DNA of 60,105 nt from positions 1-60,105 of IMG/VR virus record IMGVR_UViG_3300034027_000006. The stretch is one strand, 5' to 3'. Below, piece by piece: positions 1 through 60,105 of the stretch. The stretch comes from a virus. Taxonomy: Duplodnaviria > Caudoviricetes. The number at the start of each line of letters is the position of its first letter. Position 1 is the stretch's first letter. The position numbers and the translations under genes were made by a program. The notes beneath the pieces were generated by a model. It had not been told where the DNA came from. It did no database searches and saw only the letters and a program-made list of their open reading frames with translations.

Positions 1-127
1 CATAGCAACCGCACCCTAAGCACTGGCTAAACGCATCCCAAACGCATCCTAAACGCATACTAAACGCCAGCCAATCTCACCACATCCTCACCCCGCCCCA
101 CACTTCCCTCTACATAATAAAAAACCC
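1..127. repeat. Left terminal inverted repeat (putative telomere arm)
   Basis: Bases 1-127 are the exact reverse complement of 59979-60105; identity stops at position 128. Confidence 0.97.
28..71 (+). repeat. Four tandem 11-bp repeats inside the terminal repeat
   Basis: TAAACGCATCC / CAAACGCATCC / TAAACGCATAC / TAAACGCCAGC at 28, 39, 50 and 61. Confidence 0.9.
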
Positions 128-275
128 TAGATCGTGCAGAGATCTAGAGGCCGTAAAAATTGGGGTTTTTGAATTGTACCTTTTAAGTGACAGAAAAACC
201 CGCTAGGTTGGCTCAGCGGGCAAAGCGAATCAGATCTAATCTCTCACTCTAGATCTTCCTAGTTATTCTATAGGT

Positions 276-866
276 TTAATAGCCAGTCGGTCGGCTCCTG
301 GTTTTACATCTGTCATTAACTCGGCGTATCACTACGCCTTCGGCATTAGTTGCTAGCCCGTGACCCGGACAAGCAAACGCACAGCGATCACGATTTTCTA
401 TGTCATCTTGCGGTACTGGCTGCAATCTGTAACCCTGATGAGGACACTTAAAGTTCTCGACTTTTTGACCTAAGTAGTGATCTTCTATTGCTACAACAAA
501 ATCTAGGTATTTGCCCGCGATAGGCATAGATCGATGACACTGCAAGATTTTATAGAATGGCTCGCCGATAACTTCCTCTGCTAATAAAATCCTAGCAGGC
601 CACTCGCTCGGATCAAACTGCTCCCAGTAAGGTATTAATTGCTCGATTACTTCCCATTCTAAAAACCTGTAATCGTAATGAAAGTGAATCGGGTCAAATT
701 TTATTATTTTGCTGTCTGAGTGTGGCGGTGCGTCTATAATTGGCAACGCTTCATAAGTTATATAATCCCTTGCTCTCTCGCAATAGGTTGCCGCCTTAAC
801 ACATTTTACGCGAGCGTAGTCACCAGTTTTTACATTGTCTGATTGAGTCAGTTTAGTCTCGATCAT
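276..866 (-). CDS. Protein with C-terminal Rieske [2Fe-2S]-like motif
   Basis: CPHQG...CPGHG matches the Rieske CxH...CxxH ligand pattern. Confidence 0.6.
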   Translation of the reverse strand: MIETKLTQSDNVKTGDYARVKCVKAATYCERARDYITYEALPIIDAPPHSDSKIIKFDPIHFHYDYRFLEWEVIEQLIPYWEQFDPSEWPARILLAEEVIGEPFYKILQCHRSMPIAGKYLDFVVAIEDHYLGQKVENFKCPHQGYRLQPVPQDDIENRDRCAFACPGHGLATNAEGVVIRRVNDRCKTRSRPTGY

Positions 867-921
867 GTCGCTTTGTTTGTTTGTTTGCTTATCCTATCCT
901 ATACAATGTTATCCTGATTTG

Positions 922-1263
922 TCAAGACCTGCCAGAGTTTTTTAAGTAACTCTTAATTTTCTTTAGCGCGGGGCTGTTGTTTATAACATTAGCGACCGTT
1001 GGATGGTAACTTGCTAGATCGTCCGCTTGTCTGTCTAGCTCTTGCATCCGCTGATAGAGACTACCTTTTTTGTCGTTTATCTCGCGGTATAATTCTATTA
1101 TCTTGAACAAATAGCCAGCCGAATAGATGATCAAAACTGTTGCGGTGCAAACTGTGATCAAGTCAATAGCTGAGTAATTATCCGGTTTGGATACCACGAT
1201 CGCAGATACTACACCGATGGCTAAGCCTCTGGCTAAGATTGAAATATTTTTTTCGTTCATCAA
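922..1263 (-). CDS. Two-TM membrane protein with coiled-coil tail (holin or lysis accessory candidate)
   Basis: Two hydrophobic segments; lies downstream of the putative endolysin. Confidence 0.4.
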   Translation of the reverse strand: MMNEKNISILARGLAIGVVSAIVVSKPDNYSAIDLITVCTATVLIIYSAGYLFKIIELYREINDKKGSLYQRMQELDRQADDLASYHPTVANVINNSPALKKIKSYLKNSGRS

Positions 1264-1475
1264 CTTAAGTCTTTATTAGGATCAAAAATGCGACTACCCA
1301 AAAAAGTAGCAATAAAGAAGCGGGTAAAACCTCTAATTTTCCATTTGTCAACACTACTAAACCGACGCAAACGCCGACAAGAATTGTATAAGTAAAAGCG
1401 ATCCTGGTTTTTTTTGTTGCCATTTTTACCGATTTAGTAGTGATTTATTGTGCCGATGCTTTGCCGATGATTTAG

Positions 1476-2276
1476 TTAGTTGTCAGCAAAAACAGTCGGG
1501 ACACCGTTAACATGAGTAGGAATTCGCCCCCAACCTAAGCTACCACGAGGGAACCACAGGCGCTCGAAAGTGGCTATACTACACCTATCGTTTTTACCCG
1601 CTTCGGGTAAGTTTGAGATCCATTCGTCACTAGCTCCAAGTCTTGCGCCATTTGGATCGTGTATTTCTATGACACCAGCAAGCAGATTAAAGCCTTTACC
1701 TAACACGATGTGACCTTGATCCGGCCCTTTGTAGTCAAACCCCATAACGAGAGGAATATCATTCCTGATAGCTATATAAAAATCCTCTAACGTCAAAGAA
1801 GTAGACCAAAAAGATTCTATCCCGAACTGCCGCAGTGTTGCGGTGTTTGCGTCGTGATTTGTGGTGTCGCCGTGGCGATCTAATTCTGCTAAGTATATAC
1901 TTTCTGGCTGTTTAAACCCTCGCTTAATTGCCTCGGCGTCTAACCAGCCATTCCGCAATTTGTTCAACAGCATCGCGTTACAAGTTGCGTTACATTCCCT
2001 TGAACCATAACCACCGGGATTATCCCGTTGATAGTAATAGCTAACATCTAGGCTTATTATTTCTTGCTCAAAATTCCAGTGATGGACGTAAATATAAGCT
2101 CGATCAAACTCGTGATTGATTAGCTCAATCAATAGGTGATCGTTTAGCGCTGGTGTCACTTTAGACACTTGTAATGCCTGACCCTTTTGGATCGTTATTT
2201 TCTCGTGACTTGCTAGACTTTTGGAGTCTTTTAGCTTGGTTTTTAACACTGTTGAGACTCTTGCTTGTATGGTCAT
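1476..2276 (-). CDS. C39-like cysteine peptidase, probable endolysin
   Basis: YYQRDN...ECNATCNAM (Cys), GHIVL (His), IHDPNG (Asp); N-terminal SH3-like segment. Confidence 0.75.
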   Translation of the reverse strand: MTIQARVSTVLKTKLKDSKSLASHEKITIQKGQALQVSKVTPALNDHLLIELINHEFDRAYIYVHHWNFEQEIISLDVSYYYQRDNPGGYGSRECNATCNAMLLNKLRNGWLDAEAIKRGFKQPESIYLAELDRHGDTTNHDANTATLRQFGIESFWSTSLTLEDFYIAIRNDIPLVMGFDYKGPDQGHIVLGKGFNLLAGVIEIHDPNGARLGASDEWISNLPEAGKNDRCSIATFERLWFPRGSLGWGRIPTHVNGVPTVFADN

Positions 2277-2408
2277 ATTTTTAGATCCTTTTTGCTCAAT
2301 ATTTGCCCGGATAACATCGGTGTGTTATAGTAGGATAAGATTAGCCGATGGGGTGCGGTGAACACCCCATAAACTCGGCGGCCAGTCCCAAAACAAACTA
2401 ACCTAACC

Positions 2409-2777
2409 ATGAGCTTAACACAAACGATTCGCACAGCAATAGAGCAAGATAAACACGGAAACACGCACCCGATTGACTTTGATCACGTCTGGCGCGAGTT
2501 GGGTTACGTGCAGCGTAACCGAGCAGGGCGTCAAATTATCTTTAATCTGAGCGCGGGTGATGATTACATCCTGCTAGTTGATACCGATGCCACCAAAGGC
2601 CGCAAAGGTCGCAAAGCGCCACTAAATCGCATAACTTTGACTCTTAAAGGTTTTGAAAAATTAGCTCGCCTCACCAAAACCGATCGAGGTCGTCAAGCGC
2701 TTGCAAATTTTACCGAGCTACAAGCAGAATTGAGACGAGCGTATATTGACGCATTAGAGCGCGCTTATGGTCTATAA
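2409..2777 (+). CDS. Antirepressor-like DNA-binding protein (AntA/KilA-type N-terminal domain)
   Basis: PIDFDHVWRELGY...GDDY motif; operator half-sites upstream. Confidence 0.55.
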   Translation: MSLTQTIRTAIEQDKHGNTHPIDFDHVWRELGYVQRNRAGRQIIFNLSAGDDYILLVDTDATKGRKGRKAPLNRITLTLKGFEKLARLTKTDRGRQALANFTELQAELRRAYIDALERAYGL

Positions 2778-3082
2778 CGTGTAAACACTCTTAAGCCCCG
2801 TTTAACCCGCCTTAGTAGCGGGTTTTTTAATGGCTGCTTGGCTGATAAGTCAAACTCTAGCTCGTGCCTGTCGAGGTGTTGCAATATTTGGCGAGCATCT
2901 AAGTTGTAGATGTGGCGACCGTCTTTGCAACCCAAATATTTAAACTTTACTGGGAAGCTAAAAACTTGCTGACGCGAATATACCTGTACTACTGGCGTTA
3001 AGTTCAATTGTCGCGTAAACGGGTTAGATTGTATCGCCGCAATCGATTTAACTGCTTGTTTTCTCAGTTCCACTGTATCCAT
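2765..3082 (-). CDS. Hypothetical protein
   Basis: ORF packed in the terminase operon. Confidence 0.6.
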   Translation of the reverse strand: MDTVELRKQAVKSIAAIQSNPFTRQLNLTPVVQVYSRQQVFSFPVKFKYLGCKDGRHIYNLDARQILQHLDRHELEFDLSAKQPLKNPLLRRVKRGLRVFTRYRP

Positions 3083-3086
3083 AGTT

Positions 3087-3305
3087 TTAACCTCTGTCTA
3101 GTGGGTAATACTTGATAATAAGCGGAAATAGTGGCAGAAAGCAAATATAAATTGCTAATGTTTTGCCGCCGTCCAAGTCCGTCTCTAAATCCCAGAACAT
3201 CCCTACCCATAAATCGCGAATCTCAAACTTTAGATATACGGATATCAAGCCTCTGAGAAAATACGCGCTGCGACAAAACCAGAAAGTATTTTTAGATTTG
3301 TCCAT
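3087..3305 (-). CDS. Small hydrophobic hypothetical protein
   Basis: ORF spaced 4-5 bp from its neighbours; DLWVG motif and hydrophobic C-terminus. Confidence 0.55.
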   Translation of the reverse strand: MDKSKNTFWFCRSAYFLRGLISVYLKFEIRDLWVGMFWDLETDLDGGKTLAIYICFLPLFPLIIKYYPLDRG

Positions 3306-3310
3306 TTTCT

Positions 3311-4774
3311 TTATGTACTCCCCATTGGTAAACGTTTAGGTATATATTCGCTCGCCATCACAGCTAGAGCTAAAGCAAACGCGCAATCGTCGCGCTTACC
3401 TTTTTCGAGCGCTCCTAGCTTTTTATCTTGCCGCCTAAAATCTCGGAGTTGTTTAGCTAATGGTGGATCTCGCAATTGGTCAATGTATGGCGGTATTTTT
3501 ATTTTTCTCTCTTCCAGCAGCAATCCTAAGCTCATTATTGCATTAGGGATATCTGATTCGGTTATGTCTATTACCCGGCTGGATTTGTTCGCTTCCCTTA
3601 ATCTACTGGCTATTTCCTCGCCGCCGTCAGCACGTTTTAAAACTATTGCTGCGGGGTAATAACCTCGCGTAGCCGCGTTAACTAGAGCGATCGCTGTATT
3701 CGCGGATCTACTACGCTCGCTGACACACTTAACCACAATACCATCAACTAAGCATACTGCGGCTGTATGTGTCCCGTTGAAATATAAACCGATAGAGCAA
3801 CTTTTGACCGAGGGATCAGGCCTTCTATCTCTGATTTCAGCATCGGCAATCGATTCGGCGCTGAAGACTTCGATCGCTGCGTCCGAGAATTCGAGATTAA
3901 ATTCTCGTTTTGCGTCCACTAGATCCATGTTTAATTTTTTTGCCATATCCTCCACAAAATTGTCGTTTTGAGAGTATTTAGGGTGACACTTCCAATGTAT
4001 AAAAACTTTGGCATTGCCGTTCCCGTCTTTAAACCAGTAAAATCCGGGCAAATTGTCAGAGTATAACTCACCTTTTGCAACTTGCGAGCAGATATCCTCA
4101 ATATCCCGATCGCCGTTGTTTTCGGTTAGTTTATCCCAGTACCAGCCCGACTTAGCTGACGGGGTAGATACTATAATCACCTTTGCATCGTCACCCGTTA
4201 GAATTGTCGATCCTACCGATGCCGAGTAAATGCTTGCAATATTAGCTTGAAACGCCGCCTCGTCAAAAAACAAGTACATTAGAGAATCTGCGGATCTGTT
4301 TCCTTCTTTGCTGCTGTTGTGAGTCCTGATCTCGGCTCCATTTATTAGCCTGATTAACTTGCTTTCTTCCTTCTCTCTATCTAGTCTCGCTTGCTCTGCT
4401 AGCCATCGAATACGGCTATTTATGGCTGTTGCGTCATCCTCGTTACGCATAAAACAGCTAGCTGCGAAAGCGGGGTTTTTAGCTGCCTCGTGCAACAGTA
4501 ACGCGATGACCGATTGAGTAGTGCCTAATTGCCTTGTTTTTACTACTATGGTCGCAGGGTGTGCGGCAATTATTCGGGCAAGTAAGACTTGATATATATA
4601 AAGGTTGAAAGGCAGCATTTTGCCGCCCGACCGCATTACAATACTAGAGCAAAAATCATCGAGTTTGTCCGGGACTATTAGTAGTTTAGTCTCGTTTTTT
4701 CGAGTAGAAAGTTGCTCTAGTTTTAATTGTACTTTTGCTAGTCGGTCGCTAAATGCTCTTAAGCTTGTCGGCAT
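3311..4774 (-). CDS. terL: Terminase large subunit (ATPase intact, nuclease motifs degenerate)
   Basis: Walker A KTRQLGTT, Walker B FFDEAAF, coupling motif STP, C-terminal DD..ALALA. Confidence 0.9.
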   Translation of the reverse strand: MPTSLRAFSDRLAKVQLKLEQLSTRKNETKLLIVPDKLDDFCSSIVMRSGGKMLPFNLYIYQVLLARIIAAHPATIVVKTRQLGTTQSVIALLLHEAAKNPAFAASCFMRNEDDATAINSRIRWLAEQARLDREKEESKLIRLINGAEIRTHNSSKEGNRSADSLMYLFFDEAAFQANIASIYSASVGSTILTGDDAKVIIVSTPSAKSGWYWDKLTENNGDRDIEDICSQVAKGELYSDNLPGFYWFKDGNGNAKVFIHWKCHPKYSQNDNFVEDMAKKLNMDLVDAKREFNLEFSDAAIEVFSAESIADAEIRDRRPDPSVKSCSIGLYFNGTHTAAVCLVDGIVVKCVSERSRSANTAIALVNAATRGYYPAAIVLKRADGGEEIASRLREANKSSRVIDITESDIPNAIMSLGLLLEERKIKIPPYIDQLRDPPLAKQLRDFRRQDKKLGALEKGKRDDCAFALALAVMASEYIPKRLPMGST

Positions 4775-5064
4775 TTTTCCTCTAAATGCTTTAGCAGTGG
4801 CAGATCTTCTACGACCTTAACCTCGGCTATTTTCATCAGGATTTCTAACAGCATTTTCGATGCTGCGATTTTATCTTTGTTGTCGCTCCCCTCGTCGCTG
4901 ATTATGTCGGTCATTTTTTCGACGCCAAGCGCTACGCCTTCCAGCGCATCACTTAGGATCGTGTCATAACTAACACTGTTCTTTTTGCCTTGCCCTTTTT
5001 CTGGTTGTGTCTCTAGCTGATGCACTTGCGGTTGCACCAGTTGAATCGGCCCTTTTTTTCGCAT
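4759..5064 (-). CDS. Probable terminase small subunit
   Basis: Small helical protein overlapping the terL start; DKIAASKMLLE motif. Confidence 0.55.
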   Translation of the reverse strand: MRKKGPIQLVQPQVHQLETQPEKGQGKKNSVSYDTILSDALEGVALGVEKMTDIISDEGSDNKDKIAASKMLLEILMKIAEVKVVEDLPLLKHLEEKCRQA

Positions 5065-5076
5065 TGTATTAGCCTG

Positions 5077-8000
5077 TTAAATCGTCTCGACAATTATTTC
5101 TACTTGCGATAATTTTAACAGTATTTGCCCGACTGTGTGCTTAACCCAGACTAGCCAATCCTCAGTATTTACAAGTCTTCTAGGTTTGCTCAGGAGTTTG
5201 ACGCGATCGCCAATCTTGATCTCTGGATTGCCTACCTCTGATTTTATGGCAAACTCAAACTCGCGCCAGTTAATGCCGTCTAGTTCTGGCGGTACGGTTG
5301 CCAAGTCTGAGACTTGGGCGAGACTTGGCTCGGACTTGGCGACCTCGATCGGCGCTTCCTGTGCCTTCGCTTCTACTTGCTGTTTCAACACTTCGGGTAA
5401 TACCCAGTCGGTGTTAAATTGCACGTAGCGACGCTCTACCGCTTCATTTATAGCCATCCTGACGGGGCTATCGAGCCAAGTGTCATCTAAGGCATAAGTG
5501 TTAAGTCGCTCGCCGTCTTTCTGCACTTTTTGGCATGGCCCCAATTTTAGGCCCACAACCTCTAAAACTTTCCGCAGGTATTTAATCGAGTCCGTTTTGC
5601 CCTTGTTTGCTCCTTTGGCTATTACTGGCACTTTAAAGCCAAGTGCTGCAATAATTCGCTCGCGCCTGCCGAGCTTGCATAACTCAACTAATTCGGGGCT
5701 ATCTTTATGCCAGACTTTCTCACGGTCTAAAAAGCGCTCTATTTTTAGGTATTGTAGGGCTTTGATTTTTAGATTAGGTGAGTAAAGGTCAGGCAAGTAT
5801 ATAGCCCGTTGAGTCGCGATTTTTGCCCAGTTGTTTTGTTGTCTTTTGTTGGCAGTATCGGGATTGTGGAACATATAGAAAAACTCAGCGGCTCTTATTG
5901 CCTTCGGATCGTCATATTTCAAAAACTCGATAAAATCAGCACTCCAAAGATCGGTTAACTCTATACCTGGTAGCAAGTTTTTGTAACTGTGTTTGATCAG
6001 CTTAACTCGCTCTGGCCAGGTAACATTCCAGCCGCCTGTTAGTTTCTCTGCTTGTTCGTCGGTGATATCTGCGGCCTCGAATATCTCTTTTGCGGTCGTT
6101 TTTTTGACTTCCTCAGATGCCATTTTTAACGCGGCTTCTACTTTCCCATCTGCATAGATAAACTTTTTCTCTAGCTCGTGGCCAGCGTCTTCTAATGCAA
6201 AAATCAAACACTCTTGTAGATTCTTGCGCTCGAATGCTTCTTTTTGAGCGACAGTGATAGCAAAAAGGTTATCAGGATCGGTTTGAGCTTCTGCTATTAG
6301 GTCTAAAAATTGTTGACCTAGCCAGCCTTTATTTAGTCTGAGGTGCGAGATATCCATCTCGGCTAACTCTACTAACTTAGAGGCTGCTGCGTTAATTGTG
6401 TCGAGGTTTGCGTCGGTATTTCCTCTTAAAAATGACTGCTTAGGTATTGATATATGCCAGATACTTTCAGGGCATCGGTTTCGAGCCATTATCTGCATAG
6501 AGTTATCTGTACCGATTACACCTCTAAATAATCCGTAGCTGTGGGCAAAATAGCCGGGGCGATTGAAGTCTATCCCGCTCTCTGCTGTAGGGCTACACAA
6601 TATATAAAAAGGTTGGTGAGCGTCGATCCATTTATTAGCATCATCAAGGCATTTTCTTGCTTCTGTACCAGGGCTAACCGTTTTAGAGTCAATACGCAAA
6701 CCCTCTAGCCCCGCTTCTATTAGTAGTAACTCGATTTGCTCTAACAGTTTTTGTGAGTCACTAAAGACGATAAATGGTTTTGTCGCGGATAACATCGGGG
6801 CAACAAAAGGTGAGAGGTTTTTGTCGTCAAATTTACCCGATTTTGTGGGAGTGCCAAGCAGTATCTCGACTTTAGCTTTAGGTCGCTGCTTTTTGTTTTC
6901 TAGCTTGACTAGCTTTTTGTTTGGCGCTTTGTCTGCCAACCATTTAGCTACCCAGTCAGCAAAATTACCGTCTAGGAATATACAGCAATAAGACAGATCG
7001 ATCGCCTGCCTAAAAAGTTCTAAAGATTCGATCCTATCCTTGCGGTGTGTAGCACTTGCTGCAATGTGTAAAGCTACTGACATCGCCTCATCAATTATTA
7101 CTACTTTATTCCTAAACCATTCGGGATTAGAAAACTTTTTGATCGAGTTCGTACAAAGCGCGAGGCGACTTTGTGGATCTTTCATCATGATCAAAAGTTC
7201 TTCGCGTAAGTGAGAAAAAGACGGGATTCTAGTAGTGAAGTTGTAGATCAGCGAATTGCGAGCAAACAGTGCGATCGCGCCTTTATCCTCAAACGGCCCA
7301 CCCTTTGCGAACAGTCCCTCTAGTTGGCGAGTTTTCCCAGAACCTAGCCCCGATTTTACGGCTAGCATAATGCCTTCGGATGGAGCATCAAAGCTTACAA
7401 ATTCTGACTCTTGGACTAGATCAGGAGTAAATTCTCGCTTATGTATCCACCAACCCCAATCATTAGGACGCTCTGGCGCTTCTGTTTTTGACTGTTCAAC
7501 TGCCTCTAATGCTTTGCGCTCCTGTCGTGGCAGTGTTGACGATTTACGCTTTGGTGGCTCTATTTCTTTCGGCTTTTTATACTGTTCTACAATTTGCCAG
7601 AATTGGTGTAAATGCAGTATTTTAACACCGTCAAAATTTTCTAGTTCGTCTATATCATCAGCAGTTTTATCGACTTGTCCCCACCAAGCAATTAAAGGTC
7701 GGTATCCCTCACGCTCTAACCAATTTATTTGACGTTCTAGCCTGTCAGTAACATGATGGTTAATCACGTCGCCCGCGTCAATTGTCATTATCAATTCACG
7801 GGTTTGATACTTGTCTGTCAAATGTTCAAGCGTGGCTCGTGTGTTTTTTGGCGAGCTTGCATATAAGCCGCCAGCCGCTCCAATTACCGGGGCCTTCAAT
7901 CTTAGATTAGCGATCGCTGGTTTCATGCCCGCGCTGTCTGTTAGCCAGATCTTATCCTGTGGCCCTTCTATCGCCTCGTCGCAACAGGTGATCGGGTTTT

Positions 8001-8944: not shown

Positions 8945-10336
8945 ATGCAAAACGACCCGTCAAAATATCCTGATTTTTCCTCTACCGAAAGCGGGTGGCA
9001 ATGGTACACAGGCGAGGTTTTTCTCCCTCACTGGCTAGAATCGATACTAGACCTGAGTATCCCAGACAATCAGCGAACCTCACGGGCTATAGCTGCAAAT
9101 TTTCAATCTTGCAACCGTATCGCTGAAGTTATAGATCGTCATATAGCTGCGTTGTCACCCTCTAGCCTCAGCTTTGATAACCCTTTGTTACAAAGCTTAA
9201 TAGAAAAGTGGGAAAGAGAAAACTCCGGCATTTTTGGGCATCCACTTGAGGAAGCTGCGTTAAGAGCCAAAATTGACGGGCGAGCATATCTGCGACTATT
9301 TTTTAAGCAGTCTTATGCAGGGCAAGAGCCGCTTGATTTCCTAGAGGTTCATTGTCCGCCCGCTGAGAGCGTGAAACCCTATCGCAATAATGATCGCTTT
9401 CTAACTGGTTTTGAATATAACTATGTTGAGGATGGCGAACAGTACACCGAAAAACAGTTTTTAAAGGGATCTTTAACTGTTTTTCAAACTATCTATAAAG
9501 GTGAGATAATAGCAGAGAAAACTTTCGAGCGTGATCTTGGTGGGGGTTTTAGCATTGTTGAGATAAATTTAAAACCAATGCTAACCGAATCAATAAAAGA
9601 AAACCAGAACGGCATAAACTTCGCATTAACCTTATTACCGACAAACCTTGCTCGCAATGGCTGGCTGCAAAAAACAGTCTTAAACGGTCAACCGCCCGGA
9701 AAATGGGATTTTGACGACAAAGGCCGAGAGGTCTTTACCCCAAGCAAAGACGGATTACCAGCAGGCCCCGGTATAACTCAATTTATACAAGGCTTGCCAA
9801 TAACTGATGAGCGCGGCGTTATGACAGGTTACACCGTACCCGATATGAGGTCAGAGCAACCCATTAGCCCCGAAACTTTCACTGCAACAGTTAGAGCATT
9901 TTCTCAGTTGATCTATGAGCAAGTCGATCAGAGTTACATTCTAGCCAGCGATCTAGTTTTAAGCGGGGTTAGTCGCGAACAATCAAGACGAGATTTTGCA
10001 GATATAGTTAATGCTGACGCTGTTAAGCTGGGTTATGTCTACAGTGATTTATTAACTGTTTGTAATTACTTTCTGGGAGTTAAGCAACCAATAAAAGCAC
10101 AGTTAAAACCTAGGATAGATAGAGGCATAGAGCATAAGAAATTAGTGCTAGAAGCTCGATCGCAAGGGCTAATAACTAAACGCACAGCAATCGAGGCGTT
10201 AGGGTTTGAGATTGACATAGATGCAGAGCTTGCAGAGCTAGAAAAAGAGGCACAGAAAGCAGCAGAATTAGAAAAACCGCCAGAGACAGTCAAGCCGTCC
10301 GGCGGTGCTATTAAAGACGAAAAAACAGCCGATTAA
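8945..10336 (+). CDS. Probable portal protein
   Basis: 463 aa; N.I.EV.DRH, DGRAYLRL, SGVSREQ and C-terminal GLIT..TA...LG..D.DAEL patterns typical of portals. Confidence 0.7.
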   Translation: MQNDPSKYPDFSSTESGWQWYTGEVFLPHWLESILDLSIPDNQRTSRAIAANFQSCNRIAEVIDRHIAALSPSSLSFDNPLLQSLIEKWERENSGIFGHPLEEAALRAKIDGRAYLRLFFKQSYAGQEPLDFLEVHCPPAESVKPYRNNDRFLTGFEYNYVEDGEQYTEKQFLKGSLTVFQTIYKGEIIAEKTFERDLGGGFSIVEINLKPMLTESIKENQNGINFALTLLPTNLARNGWLQKTVLNGQPPGKWDFDDKGREVFTPSKDGLPAGPGITQFIQGLPITDERGVMTGYTVPDMRSEQPISPETFTATVRAFSQLIYEQVDQSYILASDLVLSGVSREQSRRDFADIVNADAVKLGYVYSDLLTVCNYFLGVKQPIKAQLKPRIDRGIEHKKLVLEARSQGLITKRTAIEALGFEIDIDAELAELEKEAQKAAELEKPPETVKPSGGAIKDEKTAD

Positions 10337-29363: not shown

Positions 29364-29802
29364 TCAAACCAGCCAAACAAGTAGCAACAGTATTAAAACA
29401 ACTACTGCAATCGGCATCGAAGCGAGACAGCGTAACCAAATATTAAATTTGAAACATTCCCAGTGAAGCACTGCTATCATTACCCACCCTGTTAAAATGT
29501 CGGCTCTGTGCCATTCTGTCCAGCCTGTCTTGGTTTTGTCTCTCAAAACATTTAAAGGTTTGTATCGCCGGAGCATCCGACGTTCTAACCAGCCACAATT
29601 TAAGCAGTGGACGCGAGCCATTTTTGTTAAAGGCCCGTAGGCTGCTTGTAAACGTCTAAACCGATAATCGGTGGGATTTTCAGTCAAACCGACTTTTACC
29701 ATGCCACCGTCGCGAACTAGGTAAACCCAGCCCGGACGGTTGTGATCGTCTTGATAAAAATGCCTTTCTCTGCTTGTTTTGCCTTACTATTGGTTTAATC
29801 AT
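29364..29802 (-). pseudogene. GIY-YIG/T5orf172-like protein with C-terminal TM helix, split by a frameshift
   Basis: PGWVYLVRDGGMVKVGLT...E...WTEW frame has no upstream start; ATG 29802 joins it if one base of the run at 29756-29760 is removed. Confidence 0.6.
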
Positions 29803-45141: not shown

Positions 45142-46083
45142 ATGAAAATAAAACCCCGATCGATACTCTCACGCTTGACACAGTTTTTGCCATTGCCGCC
45201 ACAGCCTCGGCTTATGATTTTTAACTGTGAAATAAAGCGCGCCCCAGAATACCCCGAGGACTGGCAAGACTACGAACTGCTAGGCTTAAGCGTGTTTGGC
45301 TGCTACTGCGACTGGCTACCAGAGAACCAACGCTGGCAAGTCTTTACAGAGGACAATAATTTTGCGGGTGTTCAGGACTTGATAGATCAAGCTGAGATAA
45401 TCGTCGGATTTAACTCTCTATCCTTTGACGATCGCCTCTGCAAGGCTCACGGCATTAATATCGCGACAACATTCGACTTAATGGTAGAGGTACGCCGAGC
45501 GGTCGGTCAGCCTTTATCTGGCCCGTGTACACGAGGGTATAAACTGCTACATATAGCCGAAAGCAACCTCGGAGCCAACTCGCCCGAAGTCCTACTAAAA
45601 GAAGCCATCCGTCCCGGTCAAGTCCCGGACTTGTGGCGATTAGGTGAACGAGAAAAAGTTATCACCTATTGCCTAAACGAGGTTTTCTTGACGTTTGAAT
45701 TGTATAAGCGCCGCCGAAAATTAGTCGATCCAGTAAGGCATAATCGATTACTGCACTGCGATCCAGATAGTCGAGACTGGCGAGAAATAAGGGCGACTAT
45801 CAAGTGGTTTTTAGCCGAGCAAGTCTTTAGCTTTAGTGTAGATAGGGTAAGCCATTGGCGGGGTGTGGACATCTTAAAAGCGCGTTTAGCCATAGCAGAA
45901 AGCGCCGTTTTAACCTTCCCTGTCTGGATTTTCCCTCAGCACGACTGGCGAGTATATACGGGATTACCCTTTAGACTCACTTCGCAGAATTCTGTCAAAA
46001 CTGATCGCCAGCGCGAGCTTGACGTGATTTATAAACGCCCAACAGACAGCGAGGGAGAGGACGCCGATCCTATTCCGTTTTAA
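45142..46083 (+). CDS. RNase H-like DEDD 3'-5' exonuclease-fold protein
   Basis: FNCEI, IVGFNSLSFD, YCLNEV motifs. Confidence 0.7.
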   Translation: MKIKPRSILSRLTQFLPLPPQPRLMIFNCEIKRAPEYPEDWQDYELLGLSVFGCYCDWLPENQRWQVFTEDNNFAGVQDLIDQAEIIVGFNSLSFDDRLCKAHGINIATTFDLMVEVRRAVGQPLSGPCTRGYKLLHIAESNLGANSPEVLLKEAIRPGQVPDLWRLGEREKVITYCLNEVFLTFELYKRRRKLVDPVRHNRLLHCDPDSRDWREIRATIKWFLAEQVFSFSVDRVSHWRGVDILKARLAIAESAVLTFPVWIFPQHDWRVYTGLPFRLTSQNSVKTDRQRELDVIYKRPTDSEGEDADPIPF

Positions 46084-46590: not shown

Positions 46591-46709
46591 GTCTCGGCTC
46601 GCTTTGTAAGGTATGATATCTTATCCTACAACATACGACAGCTTTAATCCGTCACCCTGATATCAGGGTAAACTATGGCATTTTACTAACCTATAACAAA
46701 CACTGATCG

Positions 46710-52723: not shown

Positions 52724-53698
52724 ATGAGCGAATCACAGCAAGTCCTCGAACACATAAAAATTTTAGATCCTCTAGGGATCTATAGGTCTATGGATGAAGT
52801 GACGGCTAGAAACTTAAAACCTGAACATTATAAACAATGGCAACAGGTTCAAGCCCTTTTTAGCTACCTGCTAGAACTACACAACAGATCAACAAAGGAG
52901 AATACAAAAATGCCAGAATTAACACCGGATCAAGTTGATATTTTGTCAGAGATTGAAGAGACGATCCAAAAACTGACTACAATAGCTAGCCGAGTAGAAA
53001 GGGGTAAACCTATAGGTAGCTTATTGTCGATAAAGTCTAATCGACTAAATTATTTATTTGGTCGGTATCAAATGCGTTTAGATCTAGAGTCAAGCCTGGA
53101 ACCCCGCAAAACAGCCGAGGAAATTACATCCGAAGCGTTGAGAGCAGCCGAAAAACGCGAACTAGCCGCAGAAATCAAAAAACTGGAGGCTGAGAAAAAA
53201 GAGCTAGAGGCAGAGAGATCGCAGATAGAAGTAGAAAGGAAACAGTTAGAGGCAGAGCTAAGGGAGTTAGAATCGGAAATAGAAGGAGCCACCCCAGAGA
53301 GCGAAGAAGACTGGTTAAAACGTATAGGAGGGGAAAACACAGAGCAACAAATATCGAGAATCGTTGAGGAGTGCATAGAAAGAACTAAGAGAGCATACCC
53401 GGAGATCTGCAAAGCGTTTCAAGACATCAAAATCAATTATGTCTTTAAACCGTCTGATGAAGTCCCAACCGTGACAACCGAACAATTAATAGAAAATCAC
53501 GAGATCTGGGAAAAAGAACAAAGGGCTAAACGGTCAAAAAAAGCAGAGGAAGACGAGGCGAAAGACGATCGAATCTCTGTTGAATCACTAGCTAATATGT
53601 CAGCGGCTGACGCACTAGCACTCGATCCTAAACAGCACAAAAAATGGCTCGAAATACAGCGAGAGCGCTATAACTCTCAGTATGATGATTTTCAATAA
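52724..53698 (+). CDS. Coiled-coil protein with a repeated terminal motif
   Basis: Charged heptads; M....A..L.P..(Y/H)K.W...Q at both ends. Confidence 0.7.
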   Translation: MSESQQVLEHIKILDPLGIYRSMDEVTARNLKPEHYKQWQQVQALFSYLLELHNRSTKENTKMPELTPDQVDILSEIEETIQKLTTIASRVERGKPIGSLLSIKSNRLNYLFGRYQMRLDLESSLEPRKTAEEITSEALRAAEKRELAAEIKKLEAEKKELEAERSQIEVERKQLEAELRELESEIEGATPESEEDWLKRIGGENTEQQISRIVEECIERTKRAYPEICKAFQDIKINYVFKPSDEVPTVTTEQLIENHEIWEKEQRAKRSKKAEEDEAKDDRISVESLANMSAADALALDPKQHKKWLEIQRERYNSQYDDFQ

Positions 53699-53703
53699 TT
53701 GAC

Positions 53704-53748
53704 AAGTAAATAGCCGTAGCGTTTGCCAATCGCTACGGCTATTTACTT
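53704..53748. terminator. Long hairpin between convergent genes
   Basis: AAGTAAATAGCCGTAGCG...CGCTACGGCTATTTACTT. Confidence 0.8.
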
Positions 53749-53759
53749 AGTAGGAAGCT

Positions 53760-54821
53760 TTAACGATCGGTTGCAAGTTCTGCCGACATACTCCAACAAA
53801 AAACAATCTCTCGAACAATCTGGAAAAACCGCCCGTCTAGATTAGATTCCTCGCGCTGCTCGTCGGTACTATAAAAAGCCTGGGTGAGGTGATCGACGGC
53901 TTCAGTAACTGCACTCGAATAGTCTAGGCGGGTAGCACTGTTAAGAAAGTCAGACAAGTCTAGAGGCGGTTGGCTTAAAGATACCTCAATCGGGCGAGCA
54001 AAATTTTGAGCTAGGTAGCCTTTAAAACGTCTTACTTTCCCCATCATTTTTAAGGCTTCTAGCTCCTCAAAAAATGCGTTAAACTCTGCTAGTCGTTCAG
54101 CCGCCTGCTCGCGATAGACTGGCAAAATTCTGTAGTATTCCTCGACAAGTGGATTAGATTTATCGGCACGATCTAACGCGGGCGAGGTTTGAAGTTCGCC
54201 GCCTGCTGCCTTCTTTTGTCGTGCCAACCTGCGAGCGTTTTTAGCTTGTCGCCTGCCGCTAGCGTTCGATACTGACTGGCTAGTCAATGGCTGGCCGATG
54301 TCTACCCCATCCGCCACCAAGCAAGCAAGATCATTTTTAGCGCCTGGTATATTCTGGGCCGCTTCCTCTTTAACCCAGTTGATATATTGCCGCTCGTCAA
54401 AGCTAGGATTCTTAGCCGCCGCCCAATCAAGCCAAGCGCGAGTAAAAGTCGGTGGCTCGACATCATTGACAGCGATAGCACTTGCAGCGGCTGTCGATGC
54501 CTCCATCTGGACTTGTTCGTTATCGGCTCCGAGTCTTTCTGCCTTCGATTCTGCGATCGCTGTCACTAACTCATCAGGAAGTGGATCGCCCGGTTGATGC
54601 GTGGCCGGTAGCCCTAAAACTTCATTAGCCCAAGATTGCTCGGACTGTTCAGCCGACGAGTTAACGCCGATAGTGATGCGTAGCTCCTGCACTCTCTGAT
54701 TAACCATACTGATCACCCAATCTTTTAATTGTTCTGGCACTCTGACCGGGGCCGTTTTATAGCCCTCCCACTTCGGGACGTTTGGGATCAAATTGTCTAA
54801 GGAAGCGGCGGCAATACTCAT
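53760..54821 (-). CDS. Protein with N-terminal ribbon-helix-like motif
   Basis: PKW...KT.PVRVPE.L...V. Confidence 0.65.
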   Translation of the reverse strand: MSIAAASLDNLIPNVPKWEGYKTAPVRVPEQLKDWVISMVNQRVQELRITIGVNSSAEQSEQSWANEVLGLPATHQPGDPLPDELVTAIAESKAERLGADNEQVQMEASTAAASAIAVNDVEPPTFTRAWLDWAAAKNPSFDERQYINWVKEEAAQNIPGAKNDLACLVADGVDIGQPLTSQSVSNASGRRQAKNARRLARQKKAAGGELQTSPALDRADKSNPLVEEYYRILPVYREQAAERLAEFNAFFEELEALKMMGKVRRFKGYLAQNFARPIEVSLSQPPLDLSDFLNSATRLDYSSAVTEAVDHLTQAFYSTDEQREESNLDGRFFQIVREIVFCWSMSAELATDR

Positions 54822-54882
54822 AAAACCTTAAATCCCGATCAAAACACCAATTCGCAGATCATACACCCCCACAAAGTCCGAG

Positions 54883-55068
54883 TCAAGTCTCGGACTTGCT
54901 GGCATCCTCCTGAACACTGGAATAATGCAGCTTAGCATACTCGGCAATAAAAGCTTTTATCCGAGGGATTAATTCAACTGGTACGCGGATCGATTCCGTC
55001 TTGATACCGGGCCCGTATTTAGCTTTACCCGGTCTAAGATTCTTGATCGAGTTTTTGTGTACTGGCAT
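54883..55068 (-). CDS. Small ribbon-helix DNA-binding protein
   Basis: NS.KNL.P...KT.SIRVP.EL...I; GACTT array overlaps its 3' end. Confidence 0.6.
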   Translation of the reverse strand: MPVHKNSIKNLRPGKAKYGPGIKTESIRVPVELIPRIKAFIAEYAKLHYSSVQEDASKSET

Positions 55069-55214
55069 AGGTTAACGTCTCCTGTTCGCCGGATTTGAGG
55101 TCATGGCGGCTATGGTATGAGCAAATATAGCCCAAGTCAAGGCACGATCGCCGAAAACCTTGAGAACGAGCGATCGCAGCGCTCTAAGGCTAAGCTCGCA
55201 AAAAAATATTTTCG

Positions 55215-55251
55215 ATCTTGTCCTGTTTTTTGCAGGATAAGATGATATATT
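55215..55251 (+). promoter_or_regulatory. Palindromic operator plus -10
   Basis: ATCTTGTCCT-9-AGGATAAGAT-GATATATT. Confidence 0.75.
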
Positions 55252-55286
55252 GAAATTGTCCACAGTTGACCCACCGAAAAACAATC

Positions 55287-55943
55287 ATGATTGACACCAT
55301 AAAGGCAAACCACGACGGGCAAGGCAATTTTGAGTCTCGCAGCTATAAAATAGAGCGCTTATTTGATGCTGAGGCTAAGCCATCTCACGAGTATCTGAAA
55401 TTAACCCAATCAGTGAAAGGCGATTATTCTGTCGGGGTTTTTAACTCGATAACAGGTACGTCTTATTACACAACCTTTCACGATAATTACGCGGCGGCTT
55501 ATTACACTTTCAAGACAAAGGCGATCGAAAGAAACGGCGGCAACGATCTCTATAAAAGTCAATACGGCGAGACTCGCGAAGAAAGGCAGCAAGCGCTCGG
55601 CCTCTACTTCGATCGGCTTTGTTACAACGGTCGATCTATAACTGAATTCGAGGATTTTTACGTCGGCAGTTACACCAGTCGGCTTCAATTTATCCACAAT
55701 GGTTTACTCAGTGCCTTTGCAGCCTCTGACTTTCCTAGCCTTAAAGTAAGGTATACCGATTTAGACTTCAAAAAGATAGAGGATCGATGGTTCGATGAAG
55801 TATCGGGCGATCTGACTGATATCGCAATAGAGAGAGCGTCCGGCATCGTTTACCATATCTACCAGATCCCCAAAAACCGAGCTATAGAGCTAGGGAATAA
55901 CGAGAAAGAATCAAGTAAGTTATTTGACATACTAGGAACCTAG
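55287..55943 (+). CDS. Early protein with ArdA-like (antirestriction) C-terminal similarity
   Basis: FED.Y.G.Y.S...F...D...I..R.F pattern; start revised to ATG 55287. Confidence 0.45.
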   Translation: MIDTIKANHDGQGNFESRSYKIERLFDAEAKPSHEYLKLTQSVKGDYSVGVFNSITGTSYYTTFHDNYAAAYYTFKTKAIERNGGNDLYKSQYGETREERQQALGLYFDRLCYNGRSITEFEDFYVGSYTSRLQFIHNGLLSAFAASDFPSLKVRYTDLDFKKIEDRWFDEVSGDLTDIAIERASGIVYHIYQIPKNRAIELGNNEKESSKLFDILGT

Positions 55944-55966
55944 AGCGCGAAATAAGAAGTAGCCAG

Positions 55967-55991
55967 AAGCCCCGCAGATAGGGGCTTTTTT
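55967..55991 (+). terminator. Intrinsic terminator
   Basis: AAGCCCC...GGGGCTTTTTT. Confidence 0.8.
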
Positions 55992-56022
55992 AATTGGCAA
56001 GTAAAGTTTAAAAAAGTTTTCG

Positions 56023-56058
56023 ATCCTATCCTGAGTTTCTGGGATAAGATGGTATAGT
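56023..56058 (+). promoter_or_regulatory. Palindromic operator plus extended -10
   Basis: ATCCTATCCT-8-GGGATAAGAT-GGTATAGT. Confidence 0.8.
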
Positions 56059-56095
56059 GGAAGAGACAGGACAAAAAAAACAAAGCGAATCAATT

Positions 56096-57562
56096 ATGCC
56101 TTATCGTGAAATCCTCGAAAGAATTGCTCGCGCCATCGCAAAAAATCACGGTTTCGACTACACCGGATCGGATATGTTGGCGATACAATCCCCGCGAGCA
56201 TACTTGTACACATCCGACGCTGAAGTCGCTTTAGAAGTAATCGATCAATACCTCGGAGAACACGAGATCGGGTTTGCAGATCTAAAGGTTCCCAGAGATA
56301 ACGTAACGCCTGTGACGCCTACTTCGGCTAGCCAATCAGATCAGGTTTTCCCAACTTGGGAGCAACTGACAGAATGGGTAGAAAAACTTTACAAATTCTG
56401 GAATTGTGACGCGAGCGATCGTTTCTTGTGTGAACAATACGAACTCGACAGAAAGGAGGCTTTAAGGGCTTACTTAAACCCAGAGGAATTAAGCGCTTTT
56501 TATGACCACTTAACTACTCGCGCCAAACACTTACACGAGACAACCTCAAGAGGTGATATCGACAAACTGACCTTATGTATTGTCAGAATGTTAAACCCTT
56601 ACCCCAACAAAATCGAGGTCAAGCTTTATTTTAACGATGAGATGATCTGCGTTGGTGGCAAATGCTGCGACCACTGGGCAACTAGCCACGGCGGACGCTA
56701 CACCCGCGAGATTAATTGCGTTATTCCGACAGGACTAAACCCGATTCTAATGTCATTAACCGAGATATTGCAGCATGGTAAAGACGCATCGATCGAAGTT
56801 TGGCAAGCGCCACAAGTCGAACCGGAAAAACCGAAAAACGCAACAAAAACAAAACCTACCGAGCAGTCAAGGATAGAGTTGTATAAAAACGGCAAATTGC
56901 TAGAGGTACAGCTTTACTTTGACTCTGGCGATATCTGCCTCGGAGTGCATGGCAAAAATTTTCTAATCAGTTATAAAGGTATGTTCGCTTACTCTTGGGC
57001 GGGTTACATCAAAACAGGCTTTAACCCGATTGGTAAGCATATCGAGGCAATTGGCGCGGACGGTACACACAAGACGCTTAGACCAGAAAAAAGACCGCAA
57101 CATACCCATTACAAATCGCTTACAAAATCCGAGCGAGAGCTACTTAATTGCTTTGTAGGACGCGAAATCGAGTTTGAGCGCTTCCGAGTCATTAAGCGAC
57201 ACTTGCTAGAGGTTGAAGGCTTTAAGGTTGGCGGGCTAATTTCTAGTCAGTCAGATTGCAAGGGCTGGTTTGTAACCGCTGGCAAGGATAAGGCCGCGCT
57301 GTTTTGGACTCCCTCGAATGGCTGGCAAATTGAGCCGAGACACAATCAAACTGAGTTAACCGGAGCGTTTGAAGGTTACGACTTAATCGAGGCTCTAGAG
57401 GCTAACAATATCGAGGTCAACGGAGTATCGGCTAATGACTGGAATAACGCCCGCGACGAGGAAGCCGAGGCCGAGGCGGTTGCCCTACAAATGAAAGAAG
57501 CCAAAAAAACCACGAAAAAACAGCCTGTGTTAGATATCCCGTGGGTTGATCTTCAGAAGTAG
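56096..57562 (+). CDS. Early multidomain protein with two copies of a LYF..IC.G..G(F/L)NP domain
   Basis: Start revised because the track GTG lies in the -10 box. Confidence 0.7.
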   Translation: MPYREILERIARAIAKNHGFDYTGSDMLAIQSPRAYLYTSDAEVALEVIDQYLGEHEIGFADLKVPRDNVTPVTPTSASQSDQVFPTWEQLTEWVEKLYKFWNCDASDRFLCEQYELDRKEALRAYLNPEELSAFYDHLTTRAKHLHETTSRGDIDKLTLCIVRMLNPYPNKIEVKLYFNDEMICVGGKCCDHWATSHGGRYTREINCVIPTGLNPILMSLTEILQHGKDASIEVWQAPQVEPEKPKNATKTKPTEQSRIELYKNGKLLEVQLYFDSGDICLGVHGKNFLISYKGMFAYSWAGYIKTGFNPIGKHIEAIGADGTHKTLRPEKRPQHTHYKSLTKSERELLNCFVGREIEFERFRVIKRHLLEVEGFKVGGLISSQSDCKGWFVTAGKDKAALFWTPSNGWQIEPRHNQTELTGAFEGYDLIEALEANNIEVNGVSANDWNNARDEEAEAEAVALQMKEAKKTTKKQPVLDIPWVDLQK

Positions 57563-57635
57563 ATAACACGCCTCAAATCGCAAAATAGCCTCGCTCGCGG
57601 GGCTATTCACAAACCTAACAACCTTACCTAAAATA

Positions 57636-57923
57636 ATGTCAAAAATTCAAGACAGGCCCGATAATCATTTGATCGCTACTATGCTCTGTATCAGCTTAGA
57701 AGCACGGCGAATCACAAATCATCTACAAGCGGTAGCCCCTGAGAATAAATCTAAGCTCAAAAGACTGCAAGGCGAGGACGCCAAAATTGGGGCTAATCCT
57801 AGGCAGTGGATCGAAACTTGGATCAAGATGACTAGAGAGCGACTAGACAAAATTGAGCAGCTAGTTAGCGAAGTTTGGCCAGACAAGCCACAGGAAGAAA
57901 ACGACGAGATAGAAGACAGTTAA
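57636..57923 (+). CDS. Hypothetical protein
   Basis: Flanked by hairpins at 57584-57607 and 57951-57973. Confidence 0.65.
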   Translation: MSKIQDRPDNHLIATMLCISLEARRITNHLQAVAPENKSKLKRLQGEDAKIGANPRQWIETWIKMTRERLDKIEQLVSEVWPDKPQEENDEIEDS

Positions 57924-58020
57924 AAAACTAACCCGTGTCAACGCTTCAGCCAGCCCCGATCGCGGGGCTGTTTCTATTGTGGCTACCATGCCAACCGCGA
58001 GAGGTAAAAAAAACTTTTTG

Positions 58021-58056
58021 ATGTTATCCTGAGAATTCAGGATAGGATGGTATACT
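58021..58056 (+). promoter_or_regulatory. Palindromic operator plus extended -10
   Basis: ATGTTATCCT-8-AGGATAGGAT-GGTATACT. Confidence 0.8.
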
Positions 58057-58088
58057 AGAATAGACGGACAAACAAAGCGAGCAAAAAA

Positions 58089-59096
58089 ATGACTAATCAA
58101 AAACCCGTAGGCTATACCCGGCAAATCTTAAAGCTTAACAGCTTGACCTCTAAAGAGCTTGATAAAGAATTGTCAGCAGCAAAAGTCAAAGGCCGTTCTA
58201 CAGCTAAAACAAAAGTCGAAAAAATCGAGCTTTTAATGGTCAATGTTTACGGCTACCCCGCTGGCTATAAAGGCATCGGATATACAGGCGACTTCGGCGA
58301 GCCAAGTTTTAACTCCCCCGAAGTTAAACCAACAATCACGCCAGAAACCGAAACAACAGCCCCGGCAAAAGTTGAGCGCGTCCGAGTCAAGCTATATTTT
58401 GACATTAACAATATTTGCCTCGGCGGTTGCTGCGATGATTGCTGGCTACCTCTTTACACGGGCGAGGAGTATGTCGCTAGTGAGTTTTTCAAGCTCACAC
58501 CCGGTTTTAATCCAGTGGGAAAAACTGTTAAAGAACTGCAACAAATTGAGCAAGACAGCAACCCATATAAAATCGCAGCAACAGCAACAGCGGTCGCGCT
58601 AGAGGCAAAATTAACAGCCGAGAAAGCAGCATATATCGCAGAAGTAGAATCGAACGGATTAGAAGCCAAAGCAGAAGCGACAAGAGCAGCCGAAATCGTA
58701 GCAACAGCCAAAGCGCAAAAGACAGCCCGAAGCGTTGCAGCTATAGAGGCTATGGGCTTAGACGTTCAAGAAGCAAACCATCTAGCCGAGGCAGCTAAAA
58801 AATACCCTGCACTGGCAAAAATCAAAATCGATTATCCTAACCTAGATATTTCTGAGCTAGAGGCAGCTTTTAACAATGATGAGATTTTAGAGATCAAACA
58901 AATTCAAAAAGGAGCTATCCCGATTTTTTTAGTGTTGCGAGTTTGGGGTAAAAATGAATGGGTAACACATCACTACAACGCAGCAAATAACGGGTTTTCG
59001 CTCGGCTGGTATTTTAAAGATCTCCAGAAGGCACAGGATAACTATAGGAAGCGCAAGCGGGGCGAATGCTCACCACTTGGCCCGGTAACAAGATAG
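58089..59096 (+). CDS. Early protein: Rho-N/HEH-like N-terminus plus a third LYF..IC.G domain
   Basis: LTSKEL...K.E.IELL; VKLYFDINNICLGGCCDDCW...GFNPVGK. Confidence 0.7.
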   Translation: MTNQKPVGYTRQILKLNSLTSKELDKELSAAKVKGRSTAKTKVEKIELLMVNVYGYPAGYKGIGYTGDFGEPSFNSPEVKPTITPETETTAPAKVERVRVKLYFDINNICLGGCCDDCWLPLYTGEEYVASEFFKLTPGFNPVGKTVKELQQIEQDSNPYKIAATATAVALEAKLTAEKAAYIAEVESNGLEAKAEATRAAEIVATAKAQKTARSVAAIEAMGLDVQEANHLAEAAKKYPALAKIKIDYPNLDISELEAAFNNDEILEIKQIQKGAIPIFLVLRVWGKNEWVTHHYNAANNGFSLGWYFKDLQKAQDNYRKRKRGECSPLGPVTR

Positions 59097-59124
59097 AAAA
59101 CCAAACAGTCAGACAAATAATATC

Positions 59125-59160
59125 ATCCTATCCTGATAACACAGGATAGGATGGTATACT
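59125..59160 (+). promoter_or_regulatory. Palindromic operator plus extended -10
   Basis: ATCCTATCCT-8-AGGATAGGAT-GGTATACT with perfect arms. Confidence 0.85.
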
Positions 59161-59198
59161 ATATTAAGCAAACAAAATCACTCACCGAGAATTACATC

Positions 59199-59978: not shown

Positions 59979-60105
59979 GGGTTTTTTATTATGTAGAGGG
60001 AAGTGTGGGGCGGGGTGAGGATGTGGTGAGATTGGCTGGCGTTTAGTATGCGTTTAGGATGCGTTTGGGATGCGTTTAGCCAGTGCTTAGGGTGCGGTTG
60101 CTATG
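59979..60105. repeat. Right terminal inverted repeat (putative telomere arm)
   Basis: Exact reverse complement of 1-127. Confidence 0.97.

Follow-up and report, generated by a model that had tools for sequence, protein, structure and literature searches.

The 60,105-bp IMG/VR virus record IMGVR_UViG_3300034027_000006 (hereafter the window, meaning the whole stretch of DNA analyzed here) encodes a large terminase, TerL, whose C-terminal domain has kept the RNase H-like nuclease fold while two of the three acidic residues that canonically bind metal in that fold are replaced by Tyr and Lys. These replacements mark an entire clade of terminases, arose once, and are maintained by purifying selection; in the window, they occur together with a gene for a protelomerase. 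We give about an even chance to the reading in which this TerL would serve as a DNA translocase only and the protelomerase would make the genome ends.

A T4-type terminase with a substituted nuclease site

The open reading frame (ORF) in question is a T4-type large terminase (Table 1). It matched Pfam family Terminase_6N (PF03237) with 30.8 bits against a cutoff of 22 and phrog_2 with an E value of 4.3e-21, and the single sequence scored 17.5 bits with Terminase_6C (PF17289), under the cutoff of 22.6. An AlphaFold model was built from 59 sequences (mean pLDDT, 88.4). Its first domain is an N-terminal ASCE ATPase with Walker A, Walker B, and C-motif, of which Walker B (D171-E172) and the C-motif (S203-T204-P205) showed no variation in 59 sequences. 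In place of T4 Lys166, the Walker A stretch (K79-T-R-Q-L-G84-T85-T86) has a Thr; since this P-loop (VK[ST]RQLGTTQ) was identical across both the substituted clade and its canonical sister clade (8/8 sequences checked), the Thr form is the normal state of the family and is unconnected to the loss of the nuclease site. K79, which opens the motif and does not vary, is reminiscent of the deviant Walker A of lambda gpA. An earlier, sequence-only reading of the window had described the ATPase motifs as intact, a description that agrees with the invariant Walker B and C-motif and carries the family-normal Thr as its one caveat.

The second domain, residues 300 to 476, has an RNase H-like fold: it matched the G20c TerL nuclease (5m1f) with a Z score of 17.9 and a root mean square deviation (rmsd) of 2.6 over 165 residues at 21% identity, it also matched the terminase nucleases of Sf6, RB49, P22, and herpesvirus, and the family profile aligned with 5tge at 3.8e-18. 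Site residues were located by aligning the family profile to T4 gp17, whose catalytic triad is given in PMC3074133 as D401, E458, and D542. In this alignment, D401 was paired with the conserved Asp column of the family, E458 with its Glu column, and D542 with the final Asp of its HDD motif; the corresponding residues of the window TerL are Y331, K380, and D463, which do not make up an acidic metal triad. In the model, Y331 closes strand 325-332, K380 closes strand 373-380, and D462/D463 open helix 463-476. Such strand and helix ends are the standard catalytic places of the RNase H fold. The gp17 alignment, the model secondary structure, and the codon coordinates thus make exact the positions that the sequence-only reading had given approximately (Tyr ~331, Lys ~380, and DD ~462 at the nuclease sites), and a 105-sequence alignment adds a further conserved loop Asp to the two canonical metal ligands that were lost. 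K380 probably pairs with D462/D463 and occupies the old metal site. From the loss of these residues, we infer that TerL of the substituted clade would be unable to cut DNA.

Single origin and maintenance of the substitutions

Residue counts were taken from that one alignment, which consists of the query and 104 homologues. In 30 of the 105 sequences, the first site was Tyr (27) or Phe (3) and the second was Lys (24), Arg (4), or Gln (2), and all 30 have lost a three-residue GxD loop that holds the further conserved Asp. Among the remaining 75, none had lost the Asp (75/75) or the Glu (75/75), and 73/75 had the loop Asp, a split that chance would not give. The three Phe-bearing members rule out a role of Tyr331 as catalytic nucleophile. 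When the set was widened to 216 sequences (each ≥420 amino acids), 182 had the Asp and 184 the Glu, and a FastTree tree of this set placed its 27 substituted sequences in a single clade (support, 1.0; stem, 0.57) nested among D/E terminases. The sister of this clade comprised 70 D/E sequences (support, 0.937), and deeper ancestors were D/E-dominated; loss of the nuclease site thus occurred once. Members of the clade are 42 to 95% identical to the query, and no cultured phage is among them, the best of 533 matching phage records being 37.6% identical and belonging to the canonical clade. A scan of viral contigs for TerL relatives with the single sequence gave none, and a scan with the clade alignment then gave relatives.

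The nuclease-like domain is under strong purifying selection. Ratios of nonsynonymous to synonymous substitution rates (dN/dS; Nei-Gojobori method, three clade members with DNA at an unsaturated distance) were 0.090, 0.065, and 0.062 for this domain and 0.068, 0.026, and 0.028 for the ATPase domain. Mean pairwise identity was 0.49 (nuclease-like domain) and 0.64 (ATPase domain) within the substituted clade and 0.55 and 0.64, respectively, within the sister clade; between the clades, it was 0.43 for the ATPase domain and 0.21 for the nuclease domain. Net charge of the nuclease domain averaged +3.8 in the clade (standard deviation, 1.9; 24 full-length sequences) versus −0.8 in the sister clade (standard deviation, 2.4; 67 sequences), a gain of about 4.6, and that of the ATPase domain was about equal (−3.6 versus −4.1). 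The clade-specific K441 and R444 stand where the sister clade has D/E and L. Together, the low dN/dS, the identity pattern, the gain of charge, and the clade-wide substitution bear the signature of a domain that would have changed its job and is not in the course of being lost. Simple decay of one genome, a concern raised with the sequence-only reading, is not the case, the site loss being clade-wide, of single origin, and held by selection.

At its extreme C terminus (window 3314 to 3334), TerL bears an LPxGS motif that recurs in the majority of the 30 clade tails and lacks conservation among sister-clade sequences; it may serve in docking.

Protelomerase and its distribution

The window has both the protelomerase gene and the virion structural genes of a telomere phage, the latter being a contractile-tail set of sheath, tube, baseplate, tape measure, major head protein, and Neck1, together with an endolysin (Pfam/PHROG). 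Two IMG/VR relatives, G001 and G002, have TerLs of the clade that share about 64% identity with the query, and the head, tail, portal, and terminase genes of the three are syntenic and 44 to 75% identical. Synteny between the window and G001 (52.5 kb, inverted terminal repeat class, rated 79% complete) extends over nearly all of G001, which carries a protelomerase-methyltransferase gene at 1375 to 4224; a protelomerase was therefore present in 2/2 near-complete clade records. A further protelomerase homologue, P0252, presumably shares a contig with the clade terminase P0009, judging solely by the equal size (58,715 bp) recorded for both. The G001 protelomerase homologue (949 amino acids) aligned with both the catalytic and the methyltransferase-like parts, and a search with residues 460 to 1230 gave six more homologues of 1,020 to 1,310 amino acids.

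The expected co-occurrence of residue loss and protelomerase held in one direction: clade members with enough sequence carry a protelomerase, yet intact-triad TerLs of the sister clade also lie beside protelomerase genes. Protelomerases are present in Nostoc XA010 on other contigs, and the 145-kb record G003 had none. The TerL family as a whole is thus mainly a family of cyanobacterial telomere elements, and loss of the nuclease is derived among its members. No SopA/B or ParA/B partition family was found at an E value of ≤0.001 among 56 window ORFs, in a contig that is incomplete and has many ORFs without a family.

Terminal repeats and contig ends

The inverted repeat at the ends of the window is exactly 127 nt long, and its arms diverge abruptly at base 128. 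An exact repeat of the assembler's largest word size is the de Bruijn remnant of a collapsed longer inverted repeat or palindrome, and the 127-nt repeat looks like a longer repeat cut short by the assembler. A 1,698-nt contig at a depth of 113 from a soil metagenome (run X2, record 9) ends with the 127 nt of the window (3 changes and 1 gap) and extends 1,570 nt outward. This extension and the abrupt 127-nt edge place the true ends beyond the contig, and the argument of the sequence-only reading that the contig ends at the telomeric arms therefore fails. The rest of window 1 to 6000 was uncovered in run X2, and the terminal module seems common to another, abundant element. Contig shape is also silent on the packaged form, since a hairpin-ended plasmid and an uncut palindromic tel site (circular or concatemeric) give equal shapes. 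Matches came from four sequencing runs, as contigs only and none recorded as RNA; no joints were found in these contigs, which cannot show molecule ends, hairpin fold-backs, or left-right junctions.

The terminal repeat of G001 has 99 exact nt inside 177 nt at 91.5%. An exact 28-nt piece of the window repeat had no match among viral contigs, and the 127-nt repeat gave one 21-nt match (E value, 4.8e-4) in 301 cyanobacterial genomes; it is thus not a common host repeat among those searched. No local palindrome was found at either contig end. TerL lies 1.7 to 3.3 kb from the contig end in the window, G001, and G002, and the contigs of five sister-clade loci stop 1.1 to 5.1 kb after TerL, so that a near-end TerL is a trait of the family and not specific to the substituted clade.

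Inside the terminal repeat, an 11-nt unit (CTAAACGCATC) is repeated 3.7 times at 27 to 67, and the inner edge of each arm lies in the terminator-like hairpin of the last inward gene. About 1 kb past the protelomerase gene, two convergent genes flank a near-perfect palindrome at 53704 to 53748 (45 nt, with 22-nt arms, one mismatch, and a 1-nt center); it is more terminator-like, and it may also be a protein-binding or tel-like site.

Other nucleases and the small subunit

A six-frame search of the contig detected Terminase_6C only in TerL itself (20 bits) and no HNH. Among 42 otherwise unassigned ORFs searched against Pfam at an E value of ≤0.5, no endonuclease family was found except for a sub-threshold MUG113/T5orf172 (GIY-YIG-like) match in the ORF at 29364 to 29702, which has no reported counterpart in G001 or G002; the ORF at 45142 to 46083 had a weak exonuclease-like match. 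The contig thus has no other detectable terminase nuclease or HNH, a result in favor of the sequence-only reading, in a window whose ends are missing and many of whose ORFs have no family.

The gene before TerL encodes 86 to 101 amino acids in the window, G001, G002, and the clade fragment L023, with no family match in any of them, and the position of the 101-amino-acid window gene is kept in G001 and G002. The corresponding gene of the sister clade is a small terminase with an N-terminal helix-turn-helix (phrog_2538, 5.6e-6). BLASTP gave no match between the 101-amino-acid protein and the sister small terminase, and hhalign gave a weak one of residues 33 to 93 with residues 61 to 121 (probability, 55.7%; E value, 1.2e-4; 61 columns). 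If this weak match is real, the small subunit of the clade would have lost its DNA-recognition domain, which would fit an altered start of packaging.

A proposed packaging route and its rivals

In the proposed route, TerL would keep its ATP-driven DNA translocase work in a contractile-tailed cyanobacterial phage, and its C-terminal domain would act as a noncutting, more basic DNA- or portal-binding module. The protelomerase would resolve replicated inverted-repeat junctions and so yield hairpin-ended molecules of unit length that bear long inverted terminal repeats, and the motor would package these ready-made molecules with no terminase cut at the start or the end of packaging. A precedent for such a motor is phi29, which packages a unit-length genome. 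Virions would hold hairpin-ended DNA, with ends supplied by the protelomerase. In a fuller version, the lineage would have given up terminase cutting, with the protelomerase as maturation enzyme and with a pseudonuclease T4-type motor and a small subunit without a DNA-recognition domain threading closed hairpin-ended genomes, a second, independent origin of nuclease-free packaging besides phi29; we hold this version tentatively, somewhat short of an even chance. The sequence-only reading had already proposed that the protelomerase makes unit genomes and that cutting is therefore unneeded. The site loss, its conservation, the co-occurring protelomerase, and the lack of another detected nuclease speak for that proposal, whereas the co-occurrence is one-way and the contig-end argument is gone.

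Several observations weigh against this route. In Pelatocladus (L006) and Fischerella PCC 9431 (L007), canonical D/E/D TerLs of the sister clade are found just downstream of a protelomerase gene, so that the presence of a protelomerase does not make the nuclease dispensable. No protelomerase was found in the part searched of G002 (a 34-kb fragment rated 38% complete) or in L023 (4.7 kb). In cultured telomere phages of the N15 type and the PhiHAP-1/VP882/VHML type, a functional terminase cuts cos or pac DNA, and the virion molecule is a permutation of the prophage map. The old metal site may be approached by further acidic side chains (E386/E387, D436, E307, and E313). Many window ORFs have no assigned function, and the contig, rated 72% complete, falls short of the true ends; the missing part might hold a nuclease gene.

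The last of these points bear on the rival that survives best, although we consider it unlikely: a nuclease-dead TerL whose concatemers are cut by a separate endonuclease (a host enzyme, an unrecognized phage protein, or one encoded within the unassembled terminal repeat), with cos- or pac-type virion DNA as in N15-like phages. Such an enzyme would find room among the dozens of window ORFs without family assignment or in the repeat that goes on past the ends of the incomplete contig, and the protelomerase-bearing sister elements, by keeping a working-looking nuclease, suggest that the ancestral life cycle used cutting. The six frames nevertheless held no HNH and no second terminase nuclease, and the sole nuclease-like match was the sub-threshold GIY-YIG-like one, without a reported match in either relative; moreover, we know of no tailed phage that has shifted the terminase cut to another protein while retaining a dead TerL domain.

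Less probable still is a domain that cuts through a noncanonical site, e.g., with one metal on D462/D463 aided by other residues. The conservation of D462 in 28/30 clade members and of D or E at position 463 in 30/30, the strong purifying selection on the domain, and the basic residues R447, R448, and K452 common to the canonical clade would all agree with continued cutting. Yet three acidic positions were lost together (the D401 and E458 equivalents and the loop Asp), D436 and D462 are the only acidic positions within residues 320 to 487 that are conserved at ≥85% in the clade, the occurrence of Phe at 331 makes the Tyr hydroxyl inessential, and position 380, basic or Gln, would repel or replace metal. 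A decaying or domesticated prophage or plasmid that forms no infectious virions, with nuclease loss as tolerated decay, would suit a clade known from metagenome contigs only and without a cultured phage but is very improbable in view of dN/dS values of 0.03 to 0.09 in both TerL domains, equal substitutions across homologues of such divergent identity, and the syntenic virion genes of the window, G001, and G002.

Genome context and host

In the window, the octamer GCGATCGC, which we take to be the cyanobacterial HIP1 signature, occurs 27 times versus ~0.9 expected, an excess pointing to a probable cyanobacterial host. The nearest named terminases to the window TerL are those of Nostocales and Nodularia phages, and the top sequencing-run match to the window is a biocrust metagenome, so that a host is most likely to be sought among filamentous cyanobacteria of biocrusts. 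No tRNA genes were found in the whole window.

The replication gene is unusually placed, with the portal gene on one side and the terminase genes on the other, and this order recurs in G001 and G002. Two small proteins with long hydrophobic stretches (judged by eye) are encoded after the endolysin candidate, at 922 to 1263 and 1265 to 1423; with it, they would make a putative lysis cassette at the left end. At the other end, about 7.4 kb of ORFs (window 52724 to 59867) separate the protelomerase gene from the right end; they lack a reported G001 match and a family assignment and look like a variable accessory region beside the end. Inverted operator-like motifs on ATCCTATCCTGA / AGGATAAGAT occur upstream of several genes, near the right end (56015 to 56050, 58021 to 58056, and 59120 to 59157) and elsewhere (2308 to 2341 and 46618 to 46651), and may be sites for a common regulator.

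Table 1. Coordinates of features in the window and in two sister-clade loci (L006 and L007)
Feature	Position	Strand	Basis or remark
Whole IMG/VR virus record	60,105 bp		Class, inverted terminal repeats; rated 72% complete
Left arm of terminal inverted repeat, cut short at contig end	1–127		Exact repeat
Right arm of terminal inverted repeat	59979–60105		100% complementary to 1–127
Endolysin candidate	1476–2276	−	Peptidase_C39-like PF13529, 6.6e-9; phrog_10051, 1.9e-25
Large terminase (TerL), 487 aa, substituted-nuclease-site clade	3311–4774	−	Terminase_6N, phrog_2, structure matches
TerL nuclease-like (RNase H fold) domain, residues 300–476, without two canonical catalytic carboxylates	3347–3877	−	Structure match, gp17 profile alignment
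Asp462-Asp463, kept pair	3386–3391	−	T4 D541-D542
Lys380 codon AAA	3635–3637	−	At T4 gp17 E458 position
Tyr331 codon TAT	3782–3784	−	At T4 gp17 D401 position
TerL ATPase domain, residues 36–299	3878–4669	−	Z 22.1, rmsd 2.8 over 222 residues to P74-26 TerL ATPase domain
101-aa protein upstream of TerL, overlapping TerL start; tentative small terminase C-terminal half	4759–5064	−	hhalign; no Pfam/PHROG match
Replication protein, 1,202 aa	5077–8685	−	phrog_4913 "replication," 3.8e-15; phrog_3712, 1.1e-08
Probable portal protein	8945–10336	+	phrog_64, 1.3e-4 (weak); 63% identical homologue at equal position in G001
Protelomerase (ResT/TelK catalytic domain, residues 625–808) fused to DNA methyltransferase-like part (887–1059), 1,234 aa	48957–52661	+	PF16684, 82.7 bits versus cutoff of 27; phrog_799, 9.5e-21
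Gene order protelomerase, small terminase, canonical large terminase	L006 8237–11476; L007 7802–11458		

Implications and comparison with known systems

Vestigial terminase nucleases (phi29-like) and telomere phages are each known already, and the packaging claim made here is a hypothesis that would join them. A literature search gave no report of a nuclease-less terminase in a protelomerase phage or of cyanobacterial telomere phages, the supplementary tables of PMC12042878 lying outside its coverage, nor did it give a full-sized T4-type terminase with a conserved, selected pseudonuclease site in a protelomerase phage. The packaging of hairpin-ended, unit-length genomes, if true, would be a strategy undescribed for tailed phages and would predict covalently closed ends on the DNA of tailed-phage virions; DNA of this kind would be exonuclease resistant on entry and would require no circularization. 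A protelomerase that supplies the genome ends would join the resolution of hairpin telomeres to capsid packaging in one system. A full-sized T4-type terminase with a conserved, selected pseudonuclease would also amount to a natural experiment in which the translocation, DNA-gripping, and portal-docking roles of that domain are separated from cutting.

The closest functional parallel is phi29. As presented in PMC7672431, phi29, whose DNA is packaged at unit length, has a vestigial terminase nuclease as the C-terminal domain of its gp16, DNA-holding and portal-docking roles are proposed for this domain, and terminase nuclease domains outside the phi29 group are taken as working enzymes. Like the window TerL, gp16 has kept the RNase H-like nuclease fold and lost the catalytic residues, and the production of its genome at unit length is held to spare phi29 any cutting. 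The unit-length DNA of phi29 comes from replication primed by a terminal protein, and its motor uses a pRNA; among the 56 longest window ORFs (Pfam and PHROGs), no family B polymerase was found. The phi29 domain is also strongly reduced, with one helix lost, whereas the window domain is full-sized and aligns with that of G20c as described above, and the window TerL is structurally nearer T4 and P74-26 (Z scores of 20 to 22) than the phi28 motor (14.5).

With T4 gp17 and G20c/P74-26, the window TerL shares the two-domain architecture, the fold, Walker B, and the C-motif; it differs in the Tyr and Lys at the D401 and E458 equivalents, in the deleted loop Asp, and, as a trait of its whole family, in the Walker A Thr. 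Telomere phages of the N15 type and the PhiHAP-1/VP882/VHML type resemble the window in having a protelomerase, a large replication protein, and a likely linear hairpin-ended plasmid. The window is unlike them in that its terminase cutting site is gone, its protelomerase gene also encodes a methyltransferase-like part, the 56 ORFs searched gave no ParA/SopA-type gene, and its inverted repeats are at least 127 nt long.

The sister clade, found in Nostocales (Pelatocladus, Fischerella PCC 9431, and Nostoc XA010) and in Nodularia siphophages (vB_NspS-kac65v151 and relatives), is 33 to 38% identical overall with identical ATPase motifs, and at least two of its members lie beside a protelomerase gene. 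Unlike the window clade, it keeps the Asp, the Glu, the loop Asp, and HDD, along with a small terminase that has a helix-turn-helix; with its triad intact, the sister clade offers a built-in control for the proposed loss of cutting in the clade of the window.

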